This document shows, piece by piece, positions 29,099 to 62,409 of a stretch of 64,000 bases of DNA. A model generated the notes under the pieces. That model was not told the origin of the DNA, did no database searches, and saw only the letters and a list, made by a program, of their open reading frames with translations. Positions within the stretch are counted from its first letter, which is position 1, and each line of letters starts with the position of its first letter. The DNA is from a virus. The stretch lies in the IMG/VR virus record IMGVR_UViG_3300025133_000052, positions 29,285 to 93,284 of that record; one strand, written 5' to 3'. The position numbers were made by a program, and so were the translations under genes.

Positions 29099-30187
29099 TT
29101 ATCTAACCAATTTAAATATATAATCATTGTCAAAATATTCTATATCTGTATCACTTCGTTTTATCTTTATTATAAATCTATAAAATCTTTCAGGGTGTAA
29201 CCCATCCATCCATAAATTAAAGTAATTCCCATTTGAGTCGCAACTCAATTTAGTGTGGTTATCGTCAAATGGAACAATAATTTCCTCTGTATATGCATCT
29301 CTCAAGGAGTAGTACGACGAAGTTGGTAGGTATTTAACATCTAGATAAGCTGAAGAAGTTGCAAATGTTTTAGTCGGAAATTTAGCTCTTCCATAGACTC
29401 TGAGCTTAGCCTTAGCTCCTGATTTATATTCTGTTTTTAGATTTCGAAAATATAAAGTCACATCTTCATCAGTTAACGGTGTTAATGAACCTGTACTAAA
29501 GGTACTGTCATCCCACCTAACCTCCAATTTAGGTTGATATACTGTATGTGTCTGTGTTGAGAAGAATTGTATGTTCCCTAAACTTGTTAAACTCTGCTCG
29601 TCGCTCGTCAACCTCTTCACTATAAACCCATTGTTAGTTATAGAGCTTGATAACCAAGCTTGAACTATCGTAGTAGTGTTCATATCGATATCTACGGCTG
29701 AGTAAGAGTAACTCTGTGTTGCAAAGCTCGTAGTGTACCAATTAGCTCCTCCAACAACAGCTGCATACGAACCAGTTACACCCGCTGTAAACGAACTAGT
29801 AGCCCACTGTGTACCTGCATCTACACCATCCCTATATTTCCAACTCGCTCCCTCAGTAACAGACGGTTTATTATATCTTCTACCTATCCCTCTATCCCAG
29901 CTCTCAGACACAGGGTAAGCCCTTAATGTATATATAGCAGGTATTTCCTGTTGATCGTCTGTAGCAAACATTCTTAAATGAAAGGATGGTGAAGTAATTA
30001 GCCCGTCTACAATTGACTGAGATATACTCGCTAGATCAAATTTTACTAGTGCTCTCGAATTATAAGATTGTGAAGTTGCAGGCTTAACAGCCTTGTCGAG
30101 CTCAAGTATCTGGTCTAAGCCTGTATTTAGACTTGACGAAGCTTCGTAAAGTGTTGTATCGAAATCTGCGAATATAGAATAAATCAT
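29099..30187 (-). CDS. DNRLRE/CBM96-like domain structural protein
   Basis: DTTLYE..N.G...SRALVKFDL...PKLEV pattern. Confidence 0.55.
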   Translation of the reverse strand: MIYSIFADFDTTLYEASSSLNTGLDQILELDKAVKPATSQSYNSRALVKFDLASISQSIVDGLITSPSFHLRMFATDDQQEIPAIYTLRAYPVSESWDRGIGRRYNKPSVTEGASWKYRDGVDAGTQWATSSFTAGVTGSYAAVVGGANWYTTSFATQSYSYSAVDIDMNTTTIVQAWLSSSITNNGFIVKRLTSDEQSLTSLGNIQFFSTQTHTVYQPKLEVRWDDSTFSTGSLTPLTDEDVTLYFRNLKTEYKSGAKAKLRVYGRAKFPTKTFATSSAYLDVKYLPTSSYYSLRDAYTEEIIVPFDDNHTKLSCDSNGNYFNLWMDGLHPERFYRFIIKIKRSDTDIEYFDNDYIFKLVR

Positions 30188-42683: not shown

Positions 42684-42703
42684 TAATTTTTATTTTAAGT
42701 TAG

Positions 42704-43032
42704 TGGAGGTGCCGGGTATCGATCCCGGGTCCGTGACAATTTCCTTAAGAAACATTTTTACAAGCATAGGATAAGTTTTTCTAAACTTCCAAAAATTGAT
42801 ATGTTTTTTAAACTGTAAGGTTGTTTATAGAATCAATATCATTACCTCTTCACCATCTACTTCGTTTAACATCTAATTAACCTGCAAGTATACTCAGTTA
42901 AATGATGTGCAAGTGCTAAACCTCTTAGGCCGCCATTGCAAGGGTAGTTTCGCCAGTTAGCGATACTTGATGTAGGTCATCACCCAGCCTGTGCTTCAGA
43001 CATCCGTTACACGTCAAGTCCAAGTCACCCCC
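42704..43032 (-). ncRNA. ssrA: tmRNA, tag (A)GETTLAMAA*
   Basis: 5' GGGGGTG pairs with 3' CACCTCC-A including the G3-U alanine determinant; T-arm CCGGG-ATCGATA-CCCGG; TAACT followed by GGC GAA ACT ACC CTT GCA ATG GCG GCC TAA. Confidence 0.93.
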
Positions 43033-43037
43033 GTTTA

Positions 43038-43072
43038 TATAAATATACGAAATTATATTCAGGTATCCAACT
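43038..43072 (-). promoter_or_regulatory. tmRNA promoter (host-type TTG-N20-TAnnTTT overlapping TATTTATA)
   Basis: AGTTGG...TTCGTATATTTATA immediately 5' of the tmRNA. Confidence 0.7.
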
Positions 43073-43836
43073 TATTCGGTTAGAATTTCACAACCATTAT
43101 CAGTTATCACAACTGTATGCTCCCATGCTGTACCTGGACTATTATCATCTGTCACTATACTCCACTTATCCGGTAGTATTAGTAGATTATCGTTTGTTAC
43201 CAAACCTGGTTCAATCGCAAGTACATTACCTGGCTTGAGTTGGTAGTCATTATATGGGTTTCCAGGTACCTTCCAGTACGGTATTACAGGTGGTTCGTGA
43301 AGATTTTTACCTACCCCATGGCCTTGGAATTGTTTCATTACCTTAAATCCGTGTTTGTTAGCATATGACTGTTGTATATCTCCTAATTCACCTATCGTTA
43401 CACTCGGACCGGTATTATTTAATGTATGTATGAGACAGTCATATGAGACCTTGTTAAGTAATTTTTTACTTTCTCCTACATCTCCTACTTCGACATTGAC
43501 GGCTGAGTCAGCATGCATGCCCTTATATTTTACCGGGCAATCTATACCCACTAACATACCCTCCTTGATAATAGTATCGTCAGGTATACCGTGCACTATA
43601 ACATGATCGATTGATATACAGGAATGTTTAGGGTATCCTCTATAACCGAGTGAAGCTGATTTTGATTTATGTTGTTTAAGAAAATTTGCTGCAAGGCTGT
43701 CTAGTTCATTAGTTGTTATTCCACTAGTACAATTCTCTACCATTAACTGTAATACATCCTTTACGATTTTTCCAGCTGATCTGATCCGTTTAAGTTGATT
43801 TGGATTATATATTTTAGGTTGCTTAAATATTACCAT
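43072..43836 (-). CDS. map: Methionine aminopeptidase type I
   Basis: HGIP, D...DSA, GHGVG..LHE.P, AIEP and EHTV metal-ligand motifs. Confidence 0.93.
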   Translation of the reverse strand: MVIFKQPKIYNPNQLKRIRSAGKIVKDVLQLMVENCTSGITTNELDSLAANFLKQHKSKSASLGYRGYPKHSCISIDHVIVHGIPDDTIIKEGMLVGIDCPVKYKGMHADSAVNVEVGDVGESKKLLNKVSYDCLIHTLNNTGPSVTIGELGDIQQSYANKHGFKVMKQFQGHGVGKNLHEPPVIPYWKVPGNPYNDYQLKPGNVLAIEPGLVTNDNLLILPDKWSIVTDDNSPGTAWEHTVVITDNGCEILTE

Positions 43837-46490: not shown

Positions 46491-48263
46491 CTATTTCTTA
46501 GGTAATGTTTTCTCTACAGCGTCTTCGTGATCCTCTAGTTCACCCTCTCCACCGACAGCGTCCATGTCAATTAATTCATCGTCATCTGTACCCATGGTTG
46601 AGGGCTTAACTGCGTACGCTGGTGATACTGAACCGGCTCCTTGATATAAGCCATGATTTTTTGCAAATTCAATGTCTACGCCCTGGTTATTGATATCAAT
46701 GTCACTGTACAGGTCTTTAAATTTTGTAGGTAATGAACCCTCTTCAACGTCGTTGAGTGTCGGTCTCGAGGCCTTAGCTTCTATAGTTTTAATCTTAATG
46801 GTGTTTGATACTCTCCCTGCGGCAATCTCCTTAGCTATAGCTCTGTACACACCATCCTCTCCTGTACCTTCCTTTAACTTAACATCAATCTCACTCCCGT
46901 CAGTTAATGTTACCTTAAAGCGTTCATTACTTACATCCCAAGTAGCTTCGTTAACTGATTCTTTAAGCTTTTTTAATTGACCACGTAAAAGATTCATATC
47001 CATTCTTTTATATTTGCGGTAAAATGGTGAACTATCTGTTTGAGGTTTACCATCAACAGTAAGTAAAAATCCAGGTTTCCCTCCTCCAATTTCTATAGTA
47101 TTATTTCCCTTTTTAAAAAGTGTATCTGATACTTTAGTAAATCCAAAATGTTTTAGTTTATTTGCAGTTGGGTTACCTTCATTAACTGATTCTAACATTT
47201 GGTCATTATCGAATTTTACAGTTGGTGATGGAGAGAACATATGAGTGTCTACTTTAGATTGTATTCCGTATACCTTCTTTAATAACGCTACTACCTTTTT
47301 TCCAGCACTTGCACTCTTCAAATGTAGGTATGTTACTTTATCATTAGGCTGTTTGATAATACCTTTAACGTACTGCTTTAATTCATCTTTTAATGATTCA
47401 GCTGAATCTCCCGCGATCTGTCCTCCGAGTGATGATTCATTCATTTCCATCCCCATACTAATCCACACTCTAATAATATCAGCGTAGTCTTTTGAAGTAA
47501 GACCGTTTCTCTCTCCCCAAGTAGTTTCGCTATTAAGATCATGCATTTGTTTTGCTACCTTATTAATATTACCTTCTTTAAAGCGAATAGTTGCTCTTTG
47601 TTTACCGGCATCCAGTAACCTAAATGTCTCTCCTTTAATGTCATGTGGATCTGTAGACCAACCAGCTGAATTGTTAACTCTAATATCAAAATGGGCTTGT
47701 CCGCTGCTCATGTAAACCGTCCAATCCTTTCCCTTTTGATATGTTTTACCTTTTTTGTATTTAATAGCTTCAGTAATTGATTCTAATTTATATTTCTTTT
47801 TGTTCATTGCAATGTCTATCGCGTTCAACTCCTCTCCATTATCAAGTAACACCTTATCACCTTTAATAGCTACCACCTTAGCTGTCTCCTTACCCTCTTT
47901 ACCGAAAGCGAATTGCTTTATGTAAGTGATCTTCGTACCTCTTTTAATTTTACCCTCACTGATCGATTCACTTATTGTGTGTCTCATCCCCCCGCCAGTC
48001 TTAACACCAGGGGCAGTACGTTTAAGTTTAGTACTAAGAGATTTATTAACGTGTTTAAGTAATGCATCCACTCCAGTATCGTTCATGTAGCTGGACATAT
48101 GAAGCTCATACCCTTTACCTTTCTTTTTGACCTTTTTAAGCGCCTTGGAATTAATACCTAGCCCGTCCTGTAATGACAGTTCAATCTGATATTTAACGTC
48201 TGTAGCATTTACCGCTTCAAGCACTACAGCTCTAATTGCCTTTTTTATTTCTGATATCTTCAT
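46491..48263 (-). CDS. Putative cargo polyprotein B (modules joined by ES(V/I)(N/T/S)E linkers)
   Basis: VVLEA, ESISEG, ESITEA, EMNES, ESVNEG, ESVNEA. Confidence 0.7.
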   Translation of the reverse strand: MKISEIKKAIRAVVLEAVNATDVKYQIELSLQDGLGINSKALKKVKKKGKGYELHMSSYMNDTGVDALLKHVNKSLSTKLKRTAPGVKTGGGMRHTISESISEGKIKRGTKITYIKQFAFGKEGKETAKVVAIKGDKVLLDNGEELNAIDIAMNKKKYKLESITEAIKYKKGKTYQKGKDWTVYMSSGQAHFDIRVNNSAGWSTDPHDIKGETFRLLDAGKQRATIRFKEGNINKVAKQMHDLNSETTWGERNGLTSKDYADIIRVWISMGMEMNESSLGGQIAGDSAESLKDELKQYVKGIIKQPNDKVTYLHLKSASAGKKVVALLKKVYGIQSKVDTHMFSPSPTVKFDNDQMLESVNEGNPTANKLKHFGFTKVSDTLFKKGNNTIEIGGGKPGFLLTVDGKPQTDSSPFYRKYKRMDMNLLRGQLKKLKESVNEATWDVSNERFKVTLTDGSEIDVKLKEGTGEDGVYRAIAKEIAAGRVSNTIKIKTIEAKASRPTLNDVEEGSLPTKFKDLYSDIDINNQGVDIEFAKNHGLYQGAGSVSPAYAVKPSTMGTDDDELIDMDAVGGEGELEDHEDAVEKTLPKK

Positions 48264-48280
48264 ATTCGTTTCTTAATTAT

Positions 48281-48607
48281 TTATTTTACTACCATATTTC
48301 GAAATAGCTTAGCTAACTCTAACTGGCTTTTAGGCTGTACCATGACCTGGGTAAAGTCTATCTTCCTGTACTTATCTACTATACCTTTAACTGTTCTTTT
48401 CGGTAACTTATATTTGTTAGCAAACCCTGTTAAGAATAGCTTTAAAATATCTAACCCTATATCGTGTCTATCACTCTTACTCAGCTCCTTACTCCACCTT
48501 ACTACCGGTATTCCTTTATGTTTACTTGTGTTTAAGTCTTGAACCTTTTCAATAGCCCTTCTTAAATTAAATAAAATCCAACCTAATTCTTGATTCTTTG
48601 CTGGCAT
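48281..48607 (-). CDS. Hypothetical basic protein
   Basis: ORF track. Confidence 0.6.
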   Translation of the reverse strand: MPAKNQELGWILFNLRRAIEKVQDLNTSKHKGIPVVRWSKELSKSDRHDIGLDILKLFLTGFANKYKLPKRTVKGIVDKYRKIDFTQVMVQPKSQLELAKLFRNMVVK

Positions 48608-48611
48608 ATTA

Positions 48612-48914
48612 TTACTTTTTCTTTATCGTAGTCCAAGCCTTTTGAAACATTGCTCCCATACCATCGTCTAACTTATCCATTGTTTTTAAAATGGCTCGCA
48701 TTGACTTTACTTGTCCTGGACTTGGTGTTATGCTGTGTAATATTTTACCTTGGGGCTTATCTTTATATGATGCTAGTTTACTTTCTAATTTATCTATATT
48801 ACGAATAGCTCCAGTTAATGACTTCTTAGCTAACACTAATGCTTTAGCAGTATCGATAAGATCTTTACCCGTCCATTGATCTCCTGCTTCGTTAATTAAT
48901 TTTCTTAATTTCAT
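48612..48914 (-). CDS. Putative head-cargo protein (leader MKLRKLINE)
   Basis: Leader motif. Confidence 0.65.
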   Translation of the reverse strand: MKLRKLINEAGDQWTGKDLIDTAKALVLAKKSLTGAIRNIDKLESKLASYKDKPQGKILHSITPSPGQVKSMRAILKTMDKLDDGMGAMFQKAWTTIKKK

Positions 48915-49537
48915 TACTTTACTTTTGTATATATTTCACTACCACGTACTTTAATAATCTCTAATCTAGTGTTTCTCGGAAAGATAAACTCAGCTTCACC
49001 ATCCCTGTACATATAAGGTAATGGAGCTTGTGTTGCTTTATTAAGAGCTCCGGTTAATATGAGTATACCACCCTTACCCTTGTTTGCAAAACTATCTGCT
49101 GTCGATCGATCCTTGGTTACTGACATAAAGGCTTTTTCAATAATTTTTTTAGATTGCAACGAGGTTATATACTGAAATAGATCCTTTCCTATACCCCTAA
49201 ATAACTTTGAACCTTTAAATTTTGGAGCTATCTCTATATATTGATCGATTAGGGATGCATTCGATGGTAGCTTACCGGTCCGTAAAGATTTATTCATCCT
49301 ACCATATCCAGTTGCTGTATATTTACGTACAGCTTTATTTATTTCTCGTGCCTTTTTTATTCCAAACTTTTTAACTATCGGTAGTAGTCTGCTGAGTTCA
49401 CGCTTATAACCAGTCTCTTTTCTCAATTCATCACTCGGTTCTTTTGGATTAAAAATTATCTTCTCTGTTTGATAAACTAGTTCATCTTCACCTGTTAAAT
49501 CATCAAGACCTTCTGGGATCAAATCTCTTAGTTTCAC
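48914..49537 (-). CDS. ADP-ribosyltransferase (VIP2/T4 Alt-like R-S-E type) with leader MKLRDLIPE
   Basis: YT..GY..MN..LR helix, LFRG, FMSVT, EAEFIFPR. Confidence 0.85.
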   Translation of the reverse strand: MKLRDLIPEGLDDLTGEDELVYQTEKIIFNPKEPSDELRKETGYKRELSRLLPIVKKFGIKKAREINKAVRKYTATGYGRMNKSLRTGKLPSNASLIDQYIEIAPKFKGSKLFRGIGKDLFQYITSLQSKKIIEKAFMSVTKDRSTADSFANKGKGGILILTGALNKATQAPLPYMYRDGEAEFIFPRNTRLEIIKVRGSEIYTKVK

Positions 49538-49773
49538 TATTTTTTATTCATCTTAGCAAGCTTAGCAAGTATTTCTTTCATTTGCCTACCACCAGCATAT
49601 CCTAGATTAATTTGACCAGATCTACCACCTATTTCTAAATGAATGTGTCCGTTACCATCTTTAACTATAAAAAGATTACCTACGTTGTCTTTAGTAGCCT
49701 CTTCATTAATAGTCTCTTTCTTATTGTAAAGGTTACGAAACCTCCAATCATATATACTAAATTTCTTACTCAT
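49537..49773 (-). CDS. Putative head-cargo protein (leader MSKKFSIYDW...INE)
   Basis: Leader motif. Confidence 0.6.
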   Translation of the reverse strand: MSKKFSIYDWRFRNLYNKKETINEEATKDNVGNLFIVKDGNGHIHLEIGGRSGQINLGYAGGRQMKEILAKLAKMNKK

Positions 49774-49786
49774 TGTTTTCCTTTTT

Positions 49787-52786
49787 TTATCTACCTACTT
49801 GGATAGATGACCTTAAACTTTGTAACACTTTTATAGCCTTAACTAATTCTTTTTTAACGTTAGAGCCACTAGCTCTCCGTCCTATTGCTCCTAACATGCT
49901 AATCATATCACCAACAGATGATGCATCTTTATCCACTTTCATCTTTGGAGAAGCCTCGTCAACAGGTTTAGCATCGTGAAATGCTTGATCTAATTGTGAG
50001 TCATCTTCGTTGATATCATGGGCATCCTTGAATGATATGATAGAAGGTTTAATATCTTTAGCCGTATCAATACGAATGTCTTCGTTAACAATAATGTTAG
50101 CTAATTCTTCTCTAATGATCTTAGCAATTTCTTCTTTAAGGTTATTCGTTGATTCACTTAAATCAATTGATTCCTTAAGTTTATATTTCTTTGGATCGTC
50201 TTTAATAGCTTTAGTAAAGTTAGCAATCATTTTAGGGATGTTATCATCAAAACCTATCATCTCTCCGTTAAGAGTTATCTTAGTTCCCATACCCCTAACT
50301 TTCTTAGCACCTATTTTTACTTCTGATTGTTTAAGATTATATCCATTAGCCTTTAATGCTGTTTGGACCGCATGCTTAAATTGAGAAGCAGCTTCATTAA
50401 TTGATTCATCAACCCCGTACTGTACCCAGAATGTGGCTTGACCTTTAACTGAATCTAATTTAGAGACAGGTAGCTTTAAGGATTTGATAGCCTTTTGCAT
50501 TAGTTTATGTTTCTTTGCTTGTTCAGGTGAACCTTTTTCAGACCCACTCGGTAAAGCAATAGTAGCTATTGTACCAATTGATTTAGGATACTTCCTAACA
50601 TCTAGAGGAGCTTTAGTTCCAAACATCTTTTGAAACTTCTTAATACCGGTCAGAACCTTTTTAGCATCTAATTGTTCTTCATTCATATTGTTTATTTTCT
50701 CTTTAATAATAGTACCCTCACTAAAAATGTAAATGTGTTCCTCTTTAGTTTCAGGATCAATTTTAATAACCTTACCGTTACTGTGAAGTTGTTCCATTTC
50801 ATCTTTAGAGAACGTTACTGTATCTTCTGTAACATTCATTAAACTATCTAATTCTTCGTTAATGATTTGGACAAGGAGAGCTCTCGAAAGTGTATTGCTG
50901 CGCGGCGATGATTCATTAACTGATTCATTACCAGTTGCTTTGGCATATGCTTCGACTTCCTTTGGCCAGCTGGTGCCTTCGTTAACTTCATTCTTTTTTG
51001 AACTAGCGTAAGCTCTTTGTAAAGCCTTCTTTCTAAGATCGTTATCAGTTATTCCTCTATCATCTAAATTAAAAGATGTCTCGCCATTGACGTATACTAT
51101 CTGCCCATGGGCCTTCTTCTTAATTGTAATATCAGCATCTTTCTTACGCAATAACTTATGCAAGTACTTTATTGTTTGAGAAGAACTTTCTGCTTCATTA
51201 ACTGATTCATTACCAGTTGCTTTGGCATATGCTTTGGCGTATTGTTTTGGAAAATCACCATTAATTGATTTTTTATATTCAGGTAAGTCTTTAATTGGAA
51301 CAGGAATCCACATAGCTTTATTATTGCTATTATCGTGCATGTTCATTAATGCATTACTACCTTTTATCTTTGCAACATATCCCGATCGTCCTGCCAAACT
51401 CTTGTTCTTGTGATTGGAAGGCCAGCGTATCTCAGTTCCAGGTTTAATTTTATTCTTAGCTTCATTAACTGATTCTTTAGTTAATTTGCCTTCCTTAATT
51501 TGAACTTTATTCTGCGTACGCAACTTTTTATCAAGGTCGTTAGAAGATATTATGTTTGGATTTTTATTAGGAAAATTGGGGTTTTTTATGTCAGTCCGAA
51601 TCCACTTTCCCCCAGCTACATTTTTAGCCCATGTTTGACCTGAGAAGTGTATTAGTGCTGCAAAGTCTGCTTTGTTTGCCATTCCACTTGTTGGTTTTTG
51701 TATTGGGTATTTTTTAAGATCTTTCCATATAGTTTGTGCGCGCGTCATAATAGTAGCTTCACTAACTGATTCTAATACTGGGTATTTCTTTTTAACTGAT
51801 TGTTGAAACTTCTTCCAGTTACTACCACTTATAAGATCAGAAGCATGTTGCATGAAGCTATCTAATGATGTCCATTTTTGATCTGCAAGTTCATGTTGTT
51901 TTGAAGTATAAGGTGCCATCATATCTAATAGATCAATTACAACATCGTGGGACATTTTCTTGATGGGCTTAGTTTTTAATATGCCTGCTTTCTTAGCTTG
52001 GTGCCAATCCATCTTCTTAGGAATACTATATTTCCAAATATCATTATCTTGATCGTGCTTGCTTCTCGCTGAATCACTAGCATTGAAGTTATTCTTTAAT
52101 TTACTAACATCTAAGTTAGGATCTGCTTTCTTTAATATGCTTTTAAGCTTACTAGTGTTATCAACCTTTCCATATTGTGTAACGTAAATATGATTGGCTG
52201 ATGAGTTAACTGGTGTCTTACCGTACCCTGCAGTCGTTTTAGCATATGCATCTATACCTTTAAGTTTGCTAACTACTTTACCAATTGCCTTTTCATACTC
52301 AATTTCTTTGCCTAGACCTAAGTTGTAATTTTCATTAACTGATTCATTTTTCTTTTTGCATTTTTGACATTTCTTATCTTTATGATTTGTCATTTGCATA
52401 CACTTACCACAATAATCTAATTTAAGACCTGCTTCGGTAATTGATTTATTCTTACGCATTGTTTTAACTAATTTCTCGATTTGTTTGTGTAAGGAATTAA
52501 CTAGTGTAGTTTGGCCTTTTCTTACAGCTACTGCTCTTTGCTTTAAAAGAGCTTTATATAGTTTCTCATCCTTTGAACCTTCAGTTATCTCTTCGGTAGT
52601 TAATTCAGTTTCCTTGAACTCTACATCCTTGCCCCTGAGCCTTACCATGTAACCGTAAGAACCGTCGCTATATCTCATCCCATCGGACGAGATAACTCCC
52701 TTCTTACCGTTGTACTTTTTAGCAGTGTGATCAGATATATCCTTAACCTTTACTTTGTCGAATTTTTTGAATTTAGCACTTGCCAT
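49787..52786 (-). CDS. Putative cargo polyprotein A (~1000 aa, more than 10 modules joined by ESVNE-type linkers)
   Basis: Likely start MASAK at 52786; EITEG, SITEA, ESVNEN, ESVSEA, ESVNEA x2, EVNEG, ESVNES, ESINEA, IVNED. Confidence 0.75.
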   Translation of the reverse strand: MASAKFKKFDKVKVKDISDHTAKKYNGKKGVISSDGMRYSDGSYGYMVRLRGKDVEFKETELTTEEITEGSKDEKLYKALLKQRAVAVRKGQTTLVNSLHKQIEKLVKTMRKNKSITEAGLKLDYCGKCMQMTNHKDKKCQKCKKKNESVNENYNLGLGKEIEYEKAIGKVVSKLKGIDAYAKTTAGYGKTPVNSSANHIYVTQYGKVDNTSKLKSILKKADPNLDVSKLKNNFNASDSARSKHDQDNDIWKYSIPKKMDWHQAKKAGILKTKPIKKMSHDVVIDLLDMMAPYTSKQHELADQKWTSLDSFMQHASDLISGSNWKKFQQSVKKKYPVLESVSEATIMTRAQTIWKDLKKYPIQKPTSGMANKADFAALIHFSGQTWAKNVAGGKWIRTDIKNPNFPNKNPNIISSNDLDKKLRTQNKVQIKEGKLTKESVNEAKNKIKPGTEIRWPSNHKNKSLAGRSGYVAKIKGSNALMNMHDNSNNKAMWIPVPIKDLPEYKKSINGDFPKQYAKAYAKATGNESVNEAESSSQTIKYLHKLLRKKDADITIKKKAHGQIVYVNGETSFNLDDRGITDNDLRKKALQRAYASSKKNEVNEGTSWPKEVEAYAKATGNESVNESSPRSNTLSRALLVQIINEELDSLMNVTEDTVTFSKDEMEQLHSNGKVIKIDPETKEEHIYIFSEGTIIKEKINNMNEEQLDAKKVLTGIKKFQKMFGTKAPLDVRKYPKSIGTIATIALPSGSEKGSPEQAKKHKLMQKAIKSLKLPVSKLDSVKGQATFWVQYGVDESINEAASQFKHAVQTALKANGYNLKQSEVKIGAKKVRGMGTKITLNGEMIGFDDNIPKMIANFTKAIKDDPKKYKLKESIDLSESTNNLKEEIAKIIREELANIIVNEDIRIDTAKDIKPSIISFKDAHDINEDDSQLDQAFHDAKPVDEASPKMKVDKDASSVGDMISMLGAIGRRASGSNVKKELVKAIKVLQSLRSSIQVGR

Positions 52787-52808: not shown

Positions 52809-53135
52809 CTAAAATGACTTTCGAGCGAATGCGATAAAGAAGTCTGTAATGTCTTCACTATCCCAACCTTCCTCTTCCAGATCAGCTGCCATACCTTGAC
52901 TACCGTTAATAAAGGCTTTCATGTTCTTCATGTTCACCAGACCCTGTCCTCTACGGAGGAGCTTGTGATCGTAATTAACTTCAGTTATAGGATCGTCTGT
53001 CACTTCGAGGTCATCTGCTTGTTCCTTTTGAATTGGCTCTTTTTGTGTAGTAAGTGGATTCCACTTCATCTTCTGAAGCTTCTCTGAAGGAAGCTGGCCT
53101 AGGAAGTGTTCGTTAATTAATTTTTTTAGTTTCAT
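52809..53135 (-). CDS. Putative head-cargo protein (leader MKLKKLINE)
   Basis: Leader; shares the LG.LPS.KL.KMKWNPL module with 54511..54777. Confidence 0.65.
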   Translation of the reverse strand: MKLKKLINEHFLGQLPSEKLQKMKWNPLTTQKEPIQKEQADDLEVTDDPITEVNYDHKLLRRGQGLVNMKNMKAFINGSQGMAADLEEEGWDSEDITDFFIAFARKSF

Positions 53136-56150: not shown

Positions 56151-56951
56151 TTATACTGTTTGAGCTACTAAGTCCCATACTTTCTGATTGAGTGCGAGTG
56201 AGCTCTCGTCTGATCTGACCTTACCCATTGTTCTGATTGTACCGTTCTTACCTCTTACTCTGATACCACCTCTTATAATGGCTTCTTGTAATCTGTTTAA
56301 TACTAACCAAGCACTGTTCCCCTCATCTTCGGGCCTTCTGACTTTTAATAGATCGCCTATGATTGGGGTACCCCCTGACAACTGTCTTCCACTTGTCCTT
56401 AACGTGAGTGCCTTTTTAGCTAGATCTCTTTGCTCCTTAGTTGTTAGCATTATATGTTTAAATGTTTCGATTTGTTTAACACTATCAGTAACTGCTTGAA
56501 CAGCTGCTCCTACGATGGTTTTAACATCTAGATCGCCCCTGTGGATTACTCGAGTCTTTGTATTCGCTTTACTGTCATCCATAACTACCATTCCGTTCTC
56601 ACATACTAGTCTGAAATGGCCCGCAAGTAATTTAAATGAACTCATTCCTGTGTACGAATTGATTAACAGTATCTCAGGAATTGTTTCGTTCACTTCAGTA
56701 GGTGACTGAAAGAAATTAATGTGTCTTAGTTTAACACAGTGGGTGCTGTAATCTTGTTTAGCTTCCGGATTGAACTTTCGTAGCGGAAACGCCTCGTAAG
56801 GTAACCAACCTTGATTCTGTAATTCCTTAAGTGCATCGACAGTGTTTAATACTGTGTACTTGTTAGTACGTGATACAGCTGGCGTTGGTTGAAACGCTCT
56901 AGGAATTTGTTCTTTGACTTCTAATATGTTTAATGCTTTTATCTCTGACAT
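56151..56951 (-). CDS. DUF932/DUF945-family protein
   Basis: EILLINSY.G.SSF...FRLVCENGM, RRPED...W...N..QE motifs. Confidence 0.85.
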   Translation of the reverse strand: MSEIKALNILEVKEQIPRAFQPTPAVSRTNKYTVLNTVDALKELQNQGWLPYEAFPLRKFNPEAKQDYSTHCVKLRHINFFQSPTEVNETIPEILLINSYTGMSSFKLLAGHFRLVCENGMVVMDDSKANTKTRVIHRGDLDVKTIVGAAVQAVTDSVKQIETFKHIMLTTKEQRDLAKKALTLRTSGRQLSGGTPIIGDLLKVRRPEDEGNSAWLVLNRLQEAIIRGGIRVRGKNGTIRTMGKVRSDESSLALNQKVWDLVAQTV

Positions 56952-57170
56952 AATTTTTATTTTTTAATTGTTGTTGTTTTATTATTTATTTCTTATATAA
57001 TAAAGATACGAACTTTTTATCAGACTTCCAACTTATTCTCTACCTTTTTTAAAATTTTTTGAGTCTTTTTGTTCTCGATCTCTGTTGCAATGAGACCCAC
57101 AATAATACTTACTAACAATGTTACTGTACATGACAGTAATAAAACATTAACTTCATTTAAATATTCCATA

Positions 57171-57606: not shown

Positions 57607-58359
57607 CTACCCTATTACTTGTTCAGTGATCATCTTCCTCCAGTTACTGAAGTTCATTTGTCTTATCCTTATAGCTTTAATTAAGCTTCTGAAGTTTAAG
57701 TTAACACCGTCAAACTTTTTGTGAGCTGATGCTAGTGCATTTAGTGCGTCCTTTTTAATTTTTATATCTTCAATTTGTGGCTCAATCTGAGGAAGCAATG
57801 TTTTCATTCTCTTAAGCATCTGTGACGCGTTAAGCATGATGTCGATAATGAAGCTTCTACTTTTAATAGCGCTGTCAATATCACCCGCGGCGATGTTAGT
57901 AATAAAAATTACACGACCTGTAAAATTAAAGAAGCGTGGTAAGGCTAGCCCGTCTTGATCTTTTAACGGTTTAGCAGCCAACCATCCAATTGTCCTTTTG
58001 TCGTAGCTGTCAAGAGCTCCTTTAAGTAAATTGATAGCATCTTTATCTTTGAATACGGAATCGCAATCATCGAATATAATTAATTTATCAGAGTTCTCAA
58101 ATAGAGTGATGAACATTCCTGCTGCCGTGCTCCGACCTTTAACGTGAATGAAATCAACTCCTTCCTTGTACCCAGCTCTTCTGAGCTTTTGAAGTGTTAG
58201 GAATGTTTTACCTAAGCCCGGCATTCCTGAGATTATCAATGAAGGAGAAACTCCGGAACGAACCATATCTACTAGGTTAGTCATGTCATTGAATAATTGA
58301 TTGGGATTGCGCGCTTCCTGAAACGTCTTAAAATTGAGTTTGTTGTTTTTCTTTGTCAT
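57607..58359 (-). CDS. AAA+ family ATPase
   Basis: Walker A GMPGLGKT, Walker B IIFDDCD, FITN, AIKSR; start MTKK lies downstream of the promoter. Confidence 0.85.
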   Translation of the reverse strand: MTKKNNKLNFKTFQEARNPNQLFNDMTNLVDMVRSGVSPSLIISGMPGLGKTFLTLQKLRRAGYKEGVDFIHVKGRSTAAGMFITLFENSDKLIIFDDCDSVFKDKDAINLLKGALDSYDKRTIGWLAAKPLKDQDGLALPRFFNFTGRVIFITNIAAGDIDSAIKSRSFIIDIMLNASQMLKRMKTLLPQIEPQIEDIKIKKDALNALASAHKKFDGVNLNFRSLIKAIRIRQMNFSNWRKMITEQVIG

Positions 58360-58429
58360 TGCTTTAATTGTTATCTTTCTTCTTATATAATAAAGATACG
58401 AACTATTCCTCAAAGGACCAACTATTCCG

Positions 58430-58662
58430 CAATAAAAAGGGCAATTATAAAAACAATATAAGGCTGGAGCTATCCTCCGAGCATTTAACCCTTACCGGGC
58501 ACCTTACATTGTTATAATATGTGTTGGTCAATTTGTGGGGTGCTACCAACTCACCCCAAACGATGCATCCGCTGATAATCTCCAACAACGACCAATTGTT
58601 GGTGGTATTAAATAAGGTTCCCGGCTCCAACAGTACATCATCCAACTTAGGAACAACCTTAT
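58430..58662 (-). ncRNA. Candidate structured RNA
   Basis: GC-richer intergenic stretch with four helical units, including a three-way junction. Confidence 0.4.
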
Positions 58663-58799: not shown

Positions 58800-59021
58800 C
58801 TACGATGCTTTGTTAATCAATACAGCTTTATCAGAAGCCCCACACATCCAAACCTCCTTGCCCCTTTTAGTTGATCCCCAATCTGGATGCACTGCATTTA
58901 AAATCTTGAGATAAGCTGCTTGAGCTCCTTCCCAATAAGTCTTACCAGATAGGTCACCTGGGTAAGTTGTTGATTCATATTTAGCTTCGGCAAATAATTG
59001 GATTAAATTTTCAATATTCAT
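58800..59021 (-). CDS. Hypothetical early protein
   Basis: ORF directly downstream of a promoter. Confidence 0.6.
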   Translation of the reverse strand: MNIENLIQLFAEAKYESTTYPGDLSGKTYWEGAQAAYLKILNAVHPDWGSTKRGKEVWMCGASDKAVLINKAS

Positions 59022-59301
59022 AATTTTTGTTGTTTGTTGTTTTATTATCTCTTTCCTTATATAATAAAGATACGAAGAATAATGCAGACTTCCAACTGTT
59101 CCTTAATAAAAAGTAAATTAATTTGAAATAAGTTTGGAGAAACAGTGTTTACCAATTTTATTTTTATAATTATATAGTATATAATATATTATTGATATAT
59201 GTTTTAAAAATATAGTTAATAAGTATTTTAAACAATTAAACTCTTCGAACGTTAGTGAGAAGATAAGTTACGCTAAAAACACACAATAAGTTACATTCAA
59301 T

Positions 59302-62163: not shown

Positions 62164-62409
62164 TTTATTATTATTTTTTAATTGTTAATTTTTATTTATC
62201 TTGTTGACCTTTCCATGAATTAACTAATCCTGCTACTTGGGGTAATACATCAATATCATGTCGATCTATTAACTCACATACATTAATACCGGTTGCACTA
62301 TCTGATCCCAACCTATCCATTTCCTGTACTATTGCTTCTAAAACTGTCATATCTTTATCTTTCTTCTTATATAATAAAGATACGAATTAATTACCAGACT
62401 TCCAACTAA

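Follow-up and report, generated by a model that had tools for sequence, protein, structure and literature searches.

A 15-nucleotide in-frame repeat between unrelated modules in two marine phage genes: a predicted head-protease cut site and candidate exchange point

Why should the same 15 nucleotides recur, in frame, between protein segments that are otherwise unrelated? The question is raised by two genes in a 64,000-nucleotide stretch of viral DNA (the window; positions 29,285 to 93,284 of IMG/VR record IMGVR_UViG_3300025133_000052). The record is 93,284 bases long, is estimated to be 49% complete, and was found in marine metagenomes. Both genes, here called array genes 1 and 2, encode chains of modules joined by five-residue linkers such as ESVNE, which is specified by the repeat GAATCAGTTAATGAA. 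We consider it probable that the arrays are capsid-cargo polyproteins in which the linker acts both as a predicted protease cut site and as an in-frame exchange point. The genes and their linkers are given below, with mismatches counted against GAATCAGTTAATGAA and with nearby loose ends of marine contigs and limits of DNA homology to the related contig L005.

49787–52786, minus strand: array gene 1, 999 amino acids from the ATG at 52786; the open frame reaches a GTG at 52858
46491–48263, minus strand: array gene 2, 590 amino acids, five unrelated modules
52433–52447, minus strand: linker KSITE, four mismatches, gene 1
52331–52345, minus strand: linker ESVNE, exact 15-mer, gene 1; DNA homology to L005 begins at 52348, 3 nucleotides before the linker
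51758–51772, minus strand: linker ESVSE, one mismatch, gene 1
51461–51475, minus strand: linker ESVNE, exact 15-mer, gene 1; loose ends at 51456–51461 and 51478
51194–51234, minus strand: copy 1 of a 41-nucleotide repeat encoding AYAKATGNESVNE, with linker ESVNE at 51194–51208, gene 1; loose ends at 51208–51212
50978–50992, minus strand: degenerate linker NEVNE, gene 1
50912–50952, minus strand: copy 2 of the 41-nucleotide repeat, with linker ESVNE at 50912–50926, gene 1
50393–50407, minus strand: linker ESINE, one mismatch, gene 1; loose end at 50390
47955–47969, minus strand: degenerate linker ESISE, five mismatches, gene 2
47769–47783, minus strand: linker ESITE, two mismatches, gene 2; loose ends at 47783 in three runs
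47178–47192, minus strand: linker ESVNE, exact 15-mer, gene 2; DNA homology to L005 stops at 47189, inside the linker, and a loose end lies at 47193
46947–46961, minus strand: linker ESVNE, one mismatch (AAC), gene 2; loose end at 46946

Five exact copies of the 15-mer lie in the window, at 47178, 50912, 51194, 51461, and 52331, all on the minus strand. Dinucleotide shuffles give an expectation of 0.01 copies, and none of 100 shuffles reached five. A search allowing up to three mismatches added four copies within the same 6 kb (46947, 47769, 50393, and 51758), and every copy or variant is in frame in one of the two genes. The initial annotation of this DNA had named the five exact copies, all of which we confirmed in frame. 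It had also claimed variants differing by 1–3 nucleotides; this is correct for 46947, 50393, and 51758 (one mismatch each) and for 47769 (two), but the site at 52433 has four mismatches, and the degenerate linkers ESISE and NEVNE were absent from its list. Its description of a repeat/variable-insert layout inside a reading frame, across two genes, holds: the linkers are in frame and the modules between them are unrelated. The further statement that the flanking modules share nothing is accurate for the modules as such and fails for the copies at 50912 and 51194, which belong to a 41-nucleotide exact repeat (50912–50952 = 51194–51234) and are not independent. Apart from this pair, whose two copies flank one module and a 22-residue stub, DNA identity among the copies ends at the five codons.

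Gene 1 encodes about nine unrelated modules of 22–201 amino acids joined by KSITE, ESVNE, ESVSE, NEVNE, and ESINE. Its ATG is preceded by AAAAAGATAATTAAT, as in neighboring genes, and the database protein P0003 likewise starts MASAKF. The gene 2 product opens with the leader MKISEIKKAIRAVVLE/A (a slash marks the predicted cut), followed by modules joined by ESISE, ESITE, ESVNE, and ESVNE. A [VI]-[NST]-E motif is present at each module boundary, and the peptide ES[VIL]xE occurs ten times in the two array proteins and in none of the other open reading frames of at least 40 residues, in any frame, of the 93-kb contig. Neither gene contains the same module family twice; only the linker repeats, so these are not tandem-repeat proteins. 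Neither the two array proteins nor eight relatives matched a Pfam or PHROG family at E ≤ 0.01, the modules show no common fold or family signal in Pfam or PHROGs, and an ESM Atlas search with a 190-residue module of gene 1 returned no usable match. AlphaFold2 models made without an alignment had a mean predicted local distance difference test score of 34 and 37 for the two proteins and are uninformative on domain limits. Lysine makes up 13–15% of the array proteins (15% in gene 1), compared with 7.7% in the remaining proteome. In module size and lysine content, the arrays thus match the small, basic payloads of T4-type internal proteins.

Codon bias does not account for the identity of the linker DNA. 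Given the contig's codon usage (GAA 0.73, TCA 0.34, GTT 0.34, and AAT 0.72), an ESVNE site has a probability of 0.043 of being the exact 15-mer, or 0.029 under a codon-pair model. In the window, five of six ESVNE sites are exact (P = 9e-7 from codon usage and 1e-7 from the codon-pair model). The fair count merges the 41-nucleotide duplication and leaves four exact sites of five (P ~2e-5, calculated from the codon-usage figure). Valine is encoded by GTT in all seven ESV linkers, though GTA is the commoner codon, and serine by TCA in nine of ten. An exact 17-mer search of IMG/VR (ESVNE plus GC) retrieved 58 contigs, 18 of which have open reading frames with at least two linkers. With one ascertaining copy per contig set aside, 11 of the 22 further ESVNE sites in these contigs, themselves chosen via an exact DNA copy, use the same 15-mer, compared with 7% expected (P = 7e-8); serine is TCN at all 22 sites and AGY at none. 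The linker is kept as DNA across phages, beyond codon bias, and neither genome-wide usage nor the codon-pair model explains the recurrence of GAA TCA GTT AAT GAA.

Relatives of the arrays show that the modules are rearranged and that the breakpoints concentrate at the linker. A search of 5.8 billion proteins returned 32 relatives, each of them of metagenomic origin, marine or other. When a 34-protein set was split at the linkers, the 174 segments obtained fell into 36 shared module families and 48 singletons (about 84 types). The 190-residue module has six different left and eight different right neighbors, and another family has seven and eight. In the near-identical pair P0004 and P0005, compared at the protein level, P0004 matches P0005 except for added modules, one at a first position and four at a second, and the junctions fall inside ESV[SN]EA. 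Among the relatives, 42% of the ends of ungapped protein blocks lie within 3 residues of an [VIL][NSTD]E site (10% at random), and in 16 array genes 36 of 91 DNA block ends lie within 8 nucleotides of a linker edge (6% at random, P ~1e-20). The DNA match between the window and L005 starts at 52348 and ends at 47189. Of the marine-contig loose ends listed, 15 of 24 lie within 5 nucleotides of a linker edge, a zone covering about 4% of positions; they derive from four marine runs covering 28–55% of the locus, and the contigs are short, such that some may share only the linker. In the listed contig joints the sides are short (20–24 nucleotides) or the inserts unknown, and such joints may be one linker placed in different ways.

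The initial annotation had proposed that the linker is a possible recombination joint for module shuffling. It had named two outcomes that would refute this, codon bias as sufficient cause and breakpoints away from the repeat; the comparisons above gave neither and support the proposal. We infer that junctions may be placed by DNA homology, not only by selection for intact modules. Homology-guided crossover, rather than random joining followed by selection, is favored by the excess DNA identity and by the perfectly regenerated five-residue linker. What the proposal omits is the likely primary role of the linker, which is probably that of a cut site for a T4 gp21-type head protease.

The IMG/VR contigs L053, L024, L045, L009, L016, L036, L049, and L061 carry further arrays of 600–1300 amino acids with mostly different modules. 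Some of these combine ESVNE with ESVTE or SVVTE linkers within a chain, and L009 and L016, though closely related, differ in their module sets. A protein-based scan of viral contigs with gene 1 and its 190-residue module gave no match, and the same scan with gene 2 gave one distant locus, L004. A single metagenome scan gave only two loci, and a tblastn search of gene 1 against 50,697 phage records gave no match.

The predicted cut site is suggested by the head genes of the same contig. In T4, the prohead protease gp21 cleaves after Glu by the rule L/I-x-E (PMC9026906). The T4 internal proteins, which are strongly basic (PMC8442874), carry a 10-residue leader, MKTYQEFIAE, that directs them to the prohead and is then removed by gp21 (PMC9026906, PMC8442874). 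Upstream of the window, the contig encodes a T4-type head module comprising a portal (PF07230), a prohead protease, an acidic scaffold-like protein, and a Gp23-type capsid protein (PF07068). The protease (G000:C1:19502-20167) belongs to Peptidase_S77 (MEROPS S77, PF03420, T4 gp21), with E = 5e-29 and 1.2e-27, above the cut-off; a gp21-type protease thus lies within a T4-type head module, as for T4-type internal proteins. Judged by the capsid protein, the isolates closest to this phage are Microcystis phage Mel-JY01 (61%) and Flavobacterium phage immuto (55%).

The motif recurs where such a protease would be expected to act. The capsid protein has an N-terminal extension that ends LIDE63/A64, directly ahead of the Pfam domain; the protease has sites of its own at QINE35/S near its N-terminus and PVNE/G near its C-terminus; the scaffold carries KINE, VNE/G, and VITE/G; and the open reading frame beside the protease starts MKLSKLINE/S. 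Across the proteome, 22 of 29 [VI]NE sites fall in head proteins or in the island at 44.7–53.1 kb, which together hold about 11% of residues, an approximately 24-fold enrichment. Gene 2, neighboring genes, and most relatives, though not gene 1, carry an N-terminal leader some 10 residues long that ends in [LI]-x-E; in the relatives it reads MKHFKTYDQFINE/A (close to T4 MKTYQEFIAE), MKNLYTFDEHLNE/A, MKHIQTFEAINE/G, or MKLRNLINE/F. Leader and linker can precede the same module: AASQFKHAV... stands behind ESINE in gene 1 and behind the leader MKNLLTLDECVNE in seven relatives, and a KOW-like module stands behind ESVNE in P0007 and behind MKHIQTFEAINE in P0012. Modules also occur as stand-alone genes with a leader, as in P0016 and in three small genes of L006. 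In the T4-like contig L004, an array of more than 1315 residues lies directly after the portal gene and uses the linker ESVVTE, indicating that the [VIL]-x-E rule holds across lineages though the exact linker differs. The S77 protease is found in three of five array-bearing viral records, and the other two records are 19–25% complete.

Taken together, these observations suggest the following scheme. Each gene would encode unrelated small proteins, rich in lysine and of the T4 internal-protein kind, strung into one chain. The chains would enter the prohead, in gene 2 and most relatives via the N-terminal leader; in gene 1, entry may depend on the conserved last 55 residues or on the linkers. 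The T4 gp21-type prohead protease that the phage encodes would then cut after the Glu of [V/I/L]-x-Glu in the ES[V/I]NE linkers, such that a single gene could supply the head with several small, separate proteins. The released modules would remain with the DNA and be ejected into the host, where they probably act as host-takeover or anti-defense factors. Recombination from linker to linker, within or between phage genomes, would add, remove, and reorder modules. With the same five codons at every module boundary, such recombination would keep the frame, and repeated exchange at the linker could make its DNA more alike than amino acid and codon-bias needs require. Cleavage, packaging, ejection, and module function are predictions of this scheme.

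The last 55 residues of gene 1 (49787–49954) form a tail, ASPKMKVD...AIKVLQSLRSSIQVGR, preceded by a VDE/A site. The same tail is the last module in P0020, P0023, and P0032, behind ESVNE, EALDE, or KE. It might be a second targeting or anchoring element and could account for gene 1 having no N-terminal leader.

Several points weigh against this scheme. The gene 1 product starts MASAKF and has no N-terminal leader. [VIL]xE tripeptides inside the gene 1 modules are not depleted (13 compared with 8.5 expected), so the short motif alone cannot define cutting. At least one gene 1 junction lies outside a linker: in the 22-residue stub GTSWPKEVEAY–AKATGNESVNE (50927–50992), the first 11 residues of a module are joined to the tail of the preceding module. 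The module truncated here is complete in P0004–P0006, and the stub is bracketed by the 41-nucleotide repeat. Choosing the 18 contigs through an exact DNA copy biases them to canonical-sequence lineages. Fifteen nucleotides is short for homologous recombination, and the linker junctions could be survivors of selection after random illegitimate recombination. Finally, the phage is uncultured. We also considered glutamate avoidance within modules, which was not significant ([VIL]xE outside the linkers, 13 compared with 8.5 expected in gene 1 and 4 compared with 6.4 in gene 2; Glu 4.7–5.6% compared with 6.0%).

Among other explanations, the 15-mer might reflect chance, codon bias, or recent tandem duplication. 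Its codons are among the commoner ones (GAA 0.73, AAT 0.72, TCA 0.34, and GTT 0.34), and two of the five exact copies come from one recent 41-nucleotide duplication; nevertheless, the probability of at least five exact sites in six is ~1e-6, or ~2e-5 with the pair merged, and 7e-8 in the other contigs, the shuffles expect only 0.01 copies, and the modules between copies are unrelated, unlike those of a tandem-repeat protein. On these P values, shuffles, and unrelated modules we rejected codon bias, codon-pair context, chance, and tandem duplication as its source, and regard this explanation as very improbable. Alternatively, the DNA repeat itself might be what is selected, as a dedicated in-frame recombination site resembling an integron attachment site and perhaps recognized by a phage recombinase or nuclease, with the peptide secondary. 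The DNA identity beyond what codon and codon-pair bias predict, seen in the window as in 18 other contigs, its exact end at the five codons (the 41-nucleotide pair excepted), and the block ends at linker edges would all fit such a site. Across lineages, however, it is the peptide and not the DNA that is conserved, with ESVNE, ESINE, ESITE, ESVSE, ESVTE, and ESVVTE all keeping [VIL]-x-E. No more than about half of the ESVNE sites carry the exact 15-mer, the motif also marks N-terminal leaders and protease substrates that are not shuffled, and no recombinase is linked to the arrays, making this explanation unlikely in our view. A bolder form, to which we give similarly little credence, would make the arrays an in-frame counterpart of integrons: the 15-nucleotide linker would be under selection as a recombination site, perhaps served by an enzyme of its own, through which marine phages continually re-deal a shared pool of hundreds of small injected anti-defense proteins, and the head protease would free the parts.

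The linkers could also be uncut spacers of a large multidomain protein, arranged as beads on a string, whose domains are shuffled and act as one chain. Cleavage is indeed a prediction, the internal [VIL]xE sites are not depleted, and gene 1 lacks a leader. Against this, modules are found as separate genes behind leaders ending in the same [VIL]NE, leader and linker interchange ahead of the same module, the motif is concentrated 24-fold in head-protease substrates and the island, and the modules have no common fold or family signal; we therefore consider uncut spacers quite unlikely. The reading of the arrays as capsid-cargo polyproteins, with the linker as predicted cut site and exchange point, remains the one that we prefer.

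The genes around the arrays include further proteins with leaders, three of which are given here.

48914–49537, minus strand: ADP-ribosyltransferase with the leader (M)KLRDLIPE/G (PF03496, 29 bits compared with a cut-off of 23.4; Alt-like PHROG matches)
48612–48914, minus strand: small gene with the leader MKLRKLINE/A, the leader DNA 93% identical to that of the gene at 52809–53135 (repeat family D7)
52809–53135, minus strand: small gene with the leader MKLKKLINE/H

The ADP-ribosyltransferase gene sits between array genes 1 and 2, and by context its product appears comparable to T4 Alt. Leaders occur on many small genes at 44.7–55 kb, in the forms MKL[RK]KLINE, MKLRDLIPE (the transferase), MTKKFNIKEWQ..., and MKKSKLIQIVREEIHSVITE. 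Leader DNA at 48886–48922 (...TTAATTAACGAAGC, LINEA) aligns with linker DNA at 46945, 51459, and 52329 (TCAGTTAA[TC]GAAGC, SVNEA) as repeat family D4, such that leader and linker have part of their nucleotide sequence in common in addition to the peptide rule. An intergenic element of about 55–95 nucleotides is present in at least four copies (56955–57031, 58363–58436, 59017–59110, and 62351–62405) and also in L005 (2538–2619), with 75–86% identity. It is probably a promoter and initiation cassette like the PeSL elements of T4-type phages. Upstream of the cargo island lie genes for a DUF932 protein (56151–56951) and an AAA ATPase (57607–58413, with a clamp-loader-like PHROG), in an order kept in L005. 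A phage-encoded transfer-messenger RNA (42703–43032, tag GETTLAMAA) adjoins an M24 metallopeptidase (43072–43836; PF00557, E = 1e-38), which is probably a methionine aminopeptidase.

If the proposed scheme is true, the fusion of a dozen payloads would explain how a few targeting signals suffice to load large, fast-changing cargo kits in fixed proportion, and exchange at a shared cut-site linker would explain how they diversify without breaking reading frames. The ~84 module types without a known family are candidate host-takeover or anti-defense proteins from abundant marine phages, and the linker, as peptide and DNA, is a simple search key for more arrays. A search of a literature library found no description of such arrays.

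The closest known systems are the internal proteins of T4 (IPI, IPII, IPIII) and Alt, with which the locus shares a T4-type head module with an S77 protease and small, basic cargo-like proteins (PMC3012670, PMC12373910, PMC8442874, PMC9026906). It also shares leaders of about 10 residues that end in [LIV]-x-E and resemble MKTYQEFIAE, a leader-bearing ADP-ribosyltransferase in the same island, and unrelated payloads with only the leader in common. Once injected, the T4 internal proteins inhibit restriction systems of the host, each with a single enzyme as its specific target (PMC12373910). In T4, however, every internal protein has its own gene and is cut once. The arrays instead join unrelated payloads, as many as about a dozen, in one frame, and the predicted cut-site motif is their sole spacer; gene 1, furthermore, differs in having no N-terminal leader.

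Polyvalent proteins of phages and conjugative elements have recognizable enzyme domains and usually a zincin-like peptidase of their own (Iyer et al. 2017, PMC5512222). A single delivered polypeptide carries many unrelated domains, as the arrays would, and is presumed to be split into separate units for conflict with the host. Polyvalent proteins have no repeated linker. The array modules lack any Pfam or PHROG match, and the head protease would process them at a motif that recurs. Neither conflict domains of polyvalent proteins nor an in-chain peptidase (MPTase) was found at E ≤ 0.01 in the array proteins and eight relatives. In the giant phages phiKZ, 201phi2-1, and SPN3US, a gp21-related protease likewise cleaves many head proteins behind the Glu of a short motif (PMC9026906, PMC5694885), but their inner-body and ejection proteins are single proteins that shed propeptides, not chains of unrelated exchangeable modules.

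For the exchange of units, the nearest parallel is the PeSL cassettes, in which homologous exchange is proposed to act at short conserved sequences on either side of unrelated accessory genes, and the number, order, and identity of cassettes vary (PMC2839356). PeSL and T-even internal-protein loci resemble the arrays in having a short conserved sequence between unrelated units, and in the window leaders and upstream regions are also repeated as DNA (family D7). Those repeats are intergenic regulatory blocks of about 50–100 bp (promoter, ribosome site, and leader), whereas the linker is 15 nucleotides inside one frame and has to keep that frame. Between the modules there is no PeSL-type intergenic block of promoter, terminator, or ribosome-binding site; intergenic repeats occur only elsewhere in the window. 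Repoila et al. (1994, cited in PMC12373910) are said to have proposed that T-even internal-protein genes are shuffled through conserved flanking DNA. The S77 protease, the L/I-x-E rule, the leader, unrelated payloads sharing a leader, Alt, and the proposal of shuffling through flanking DNA are thus parts known from T4. What differs here is the fusion of many payloads in one frame, with the predicted cut-site motif as the only spacer and as a 15-nucleotide in-frame repeat.

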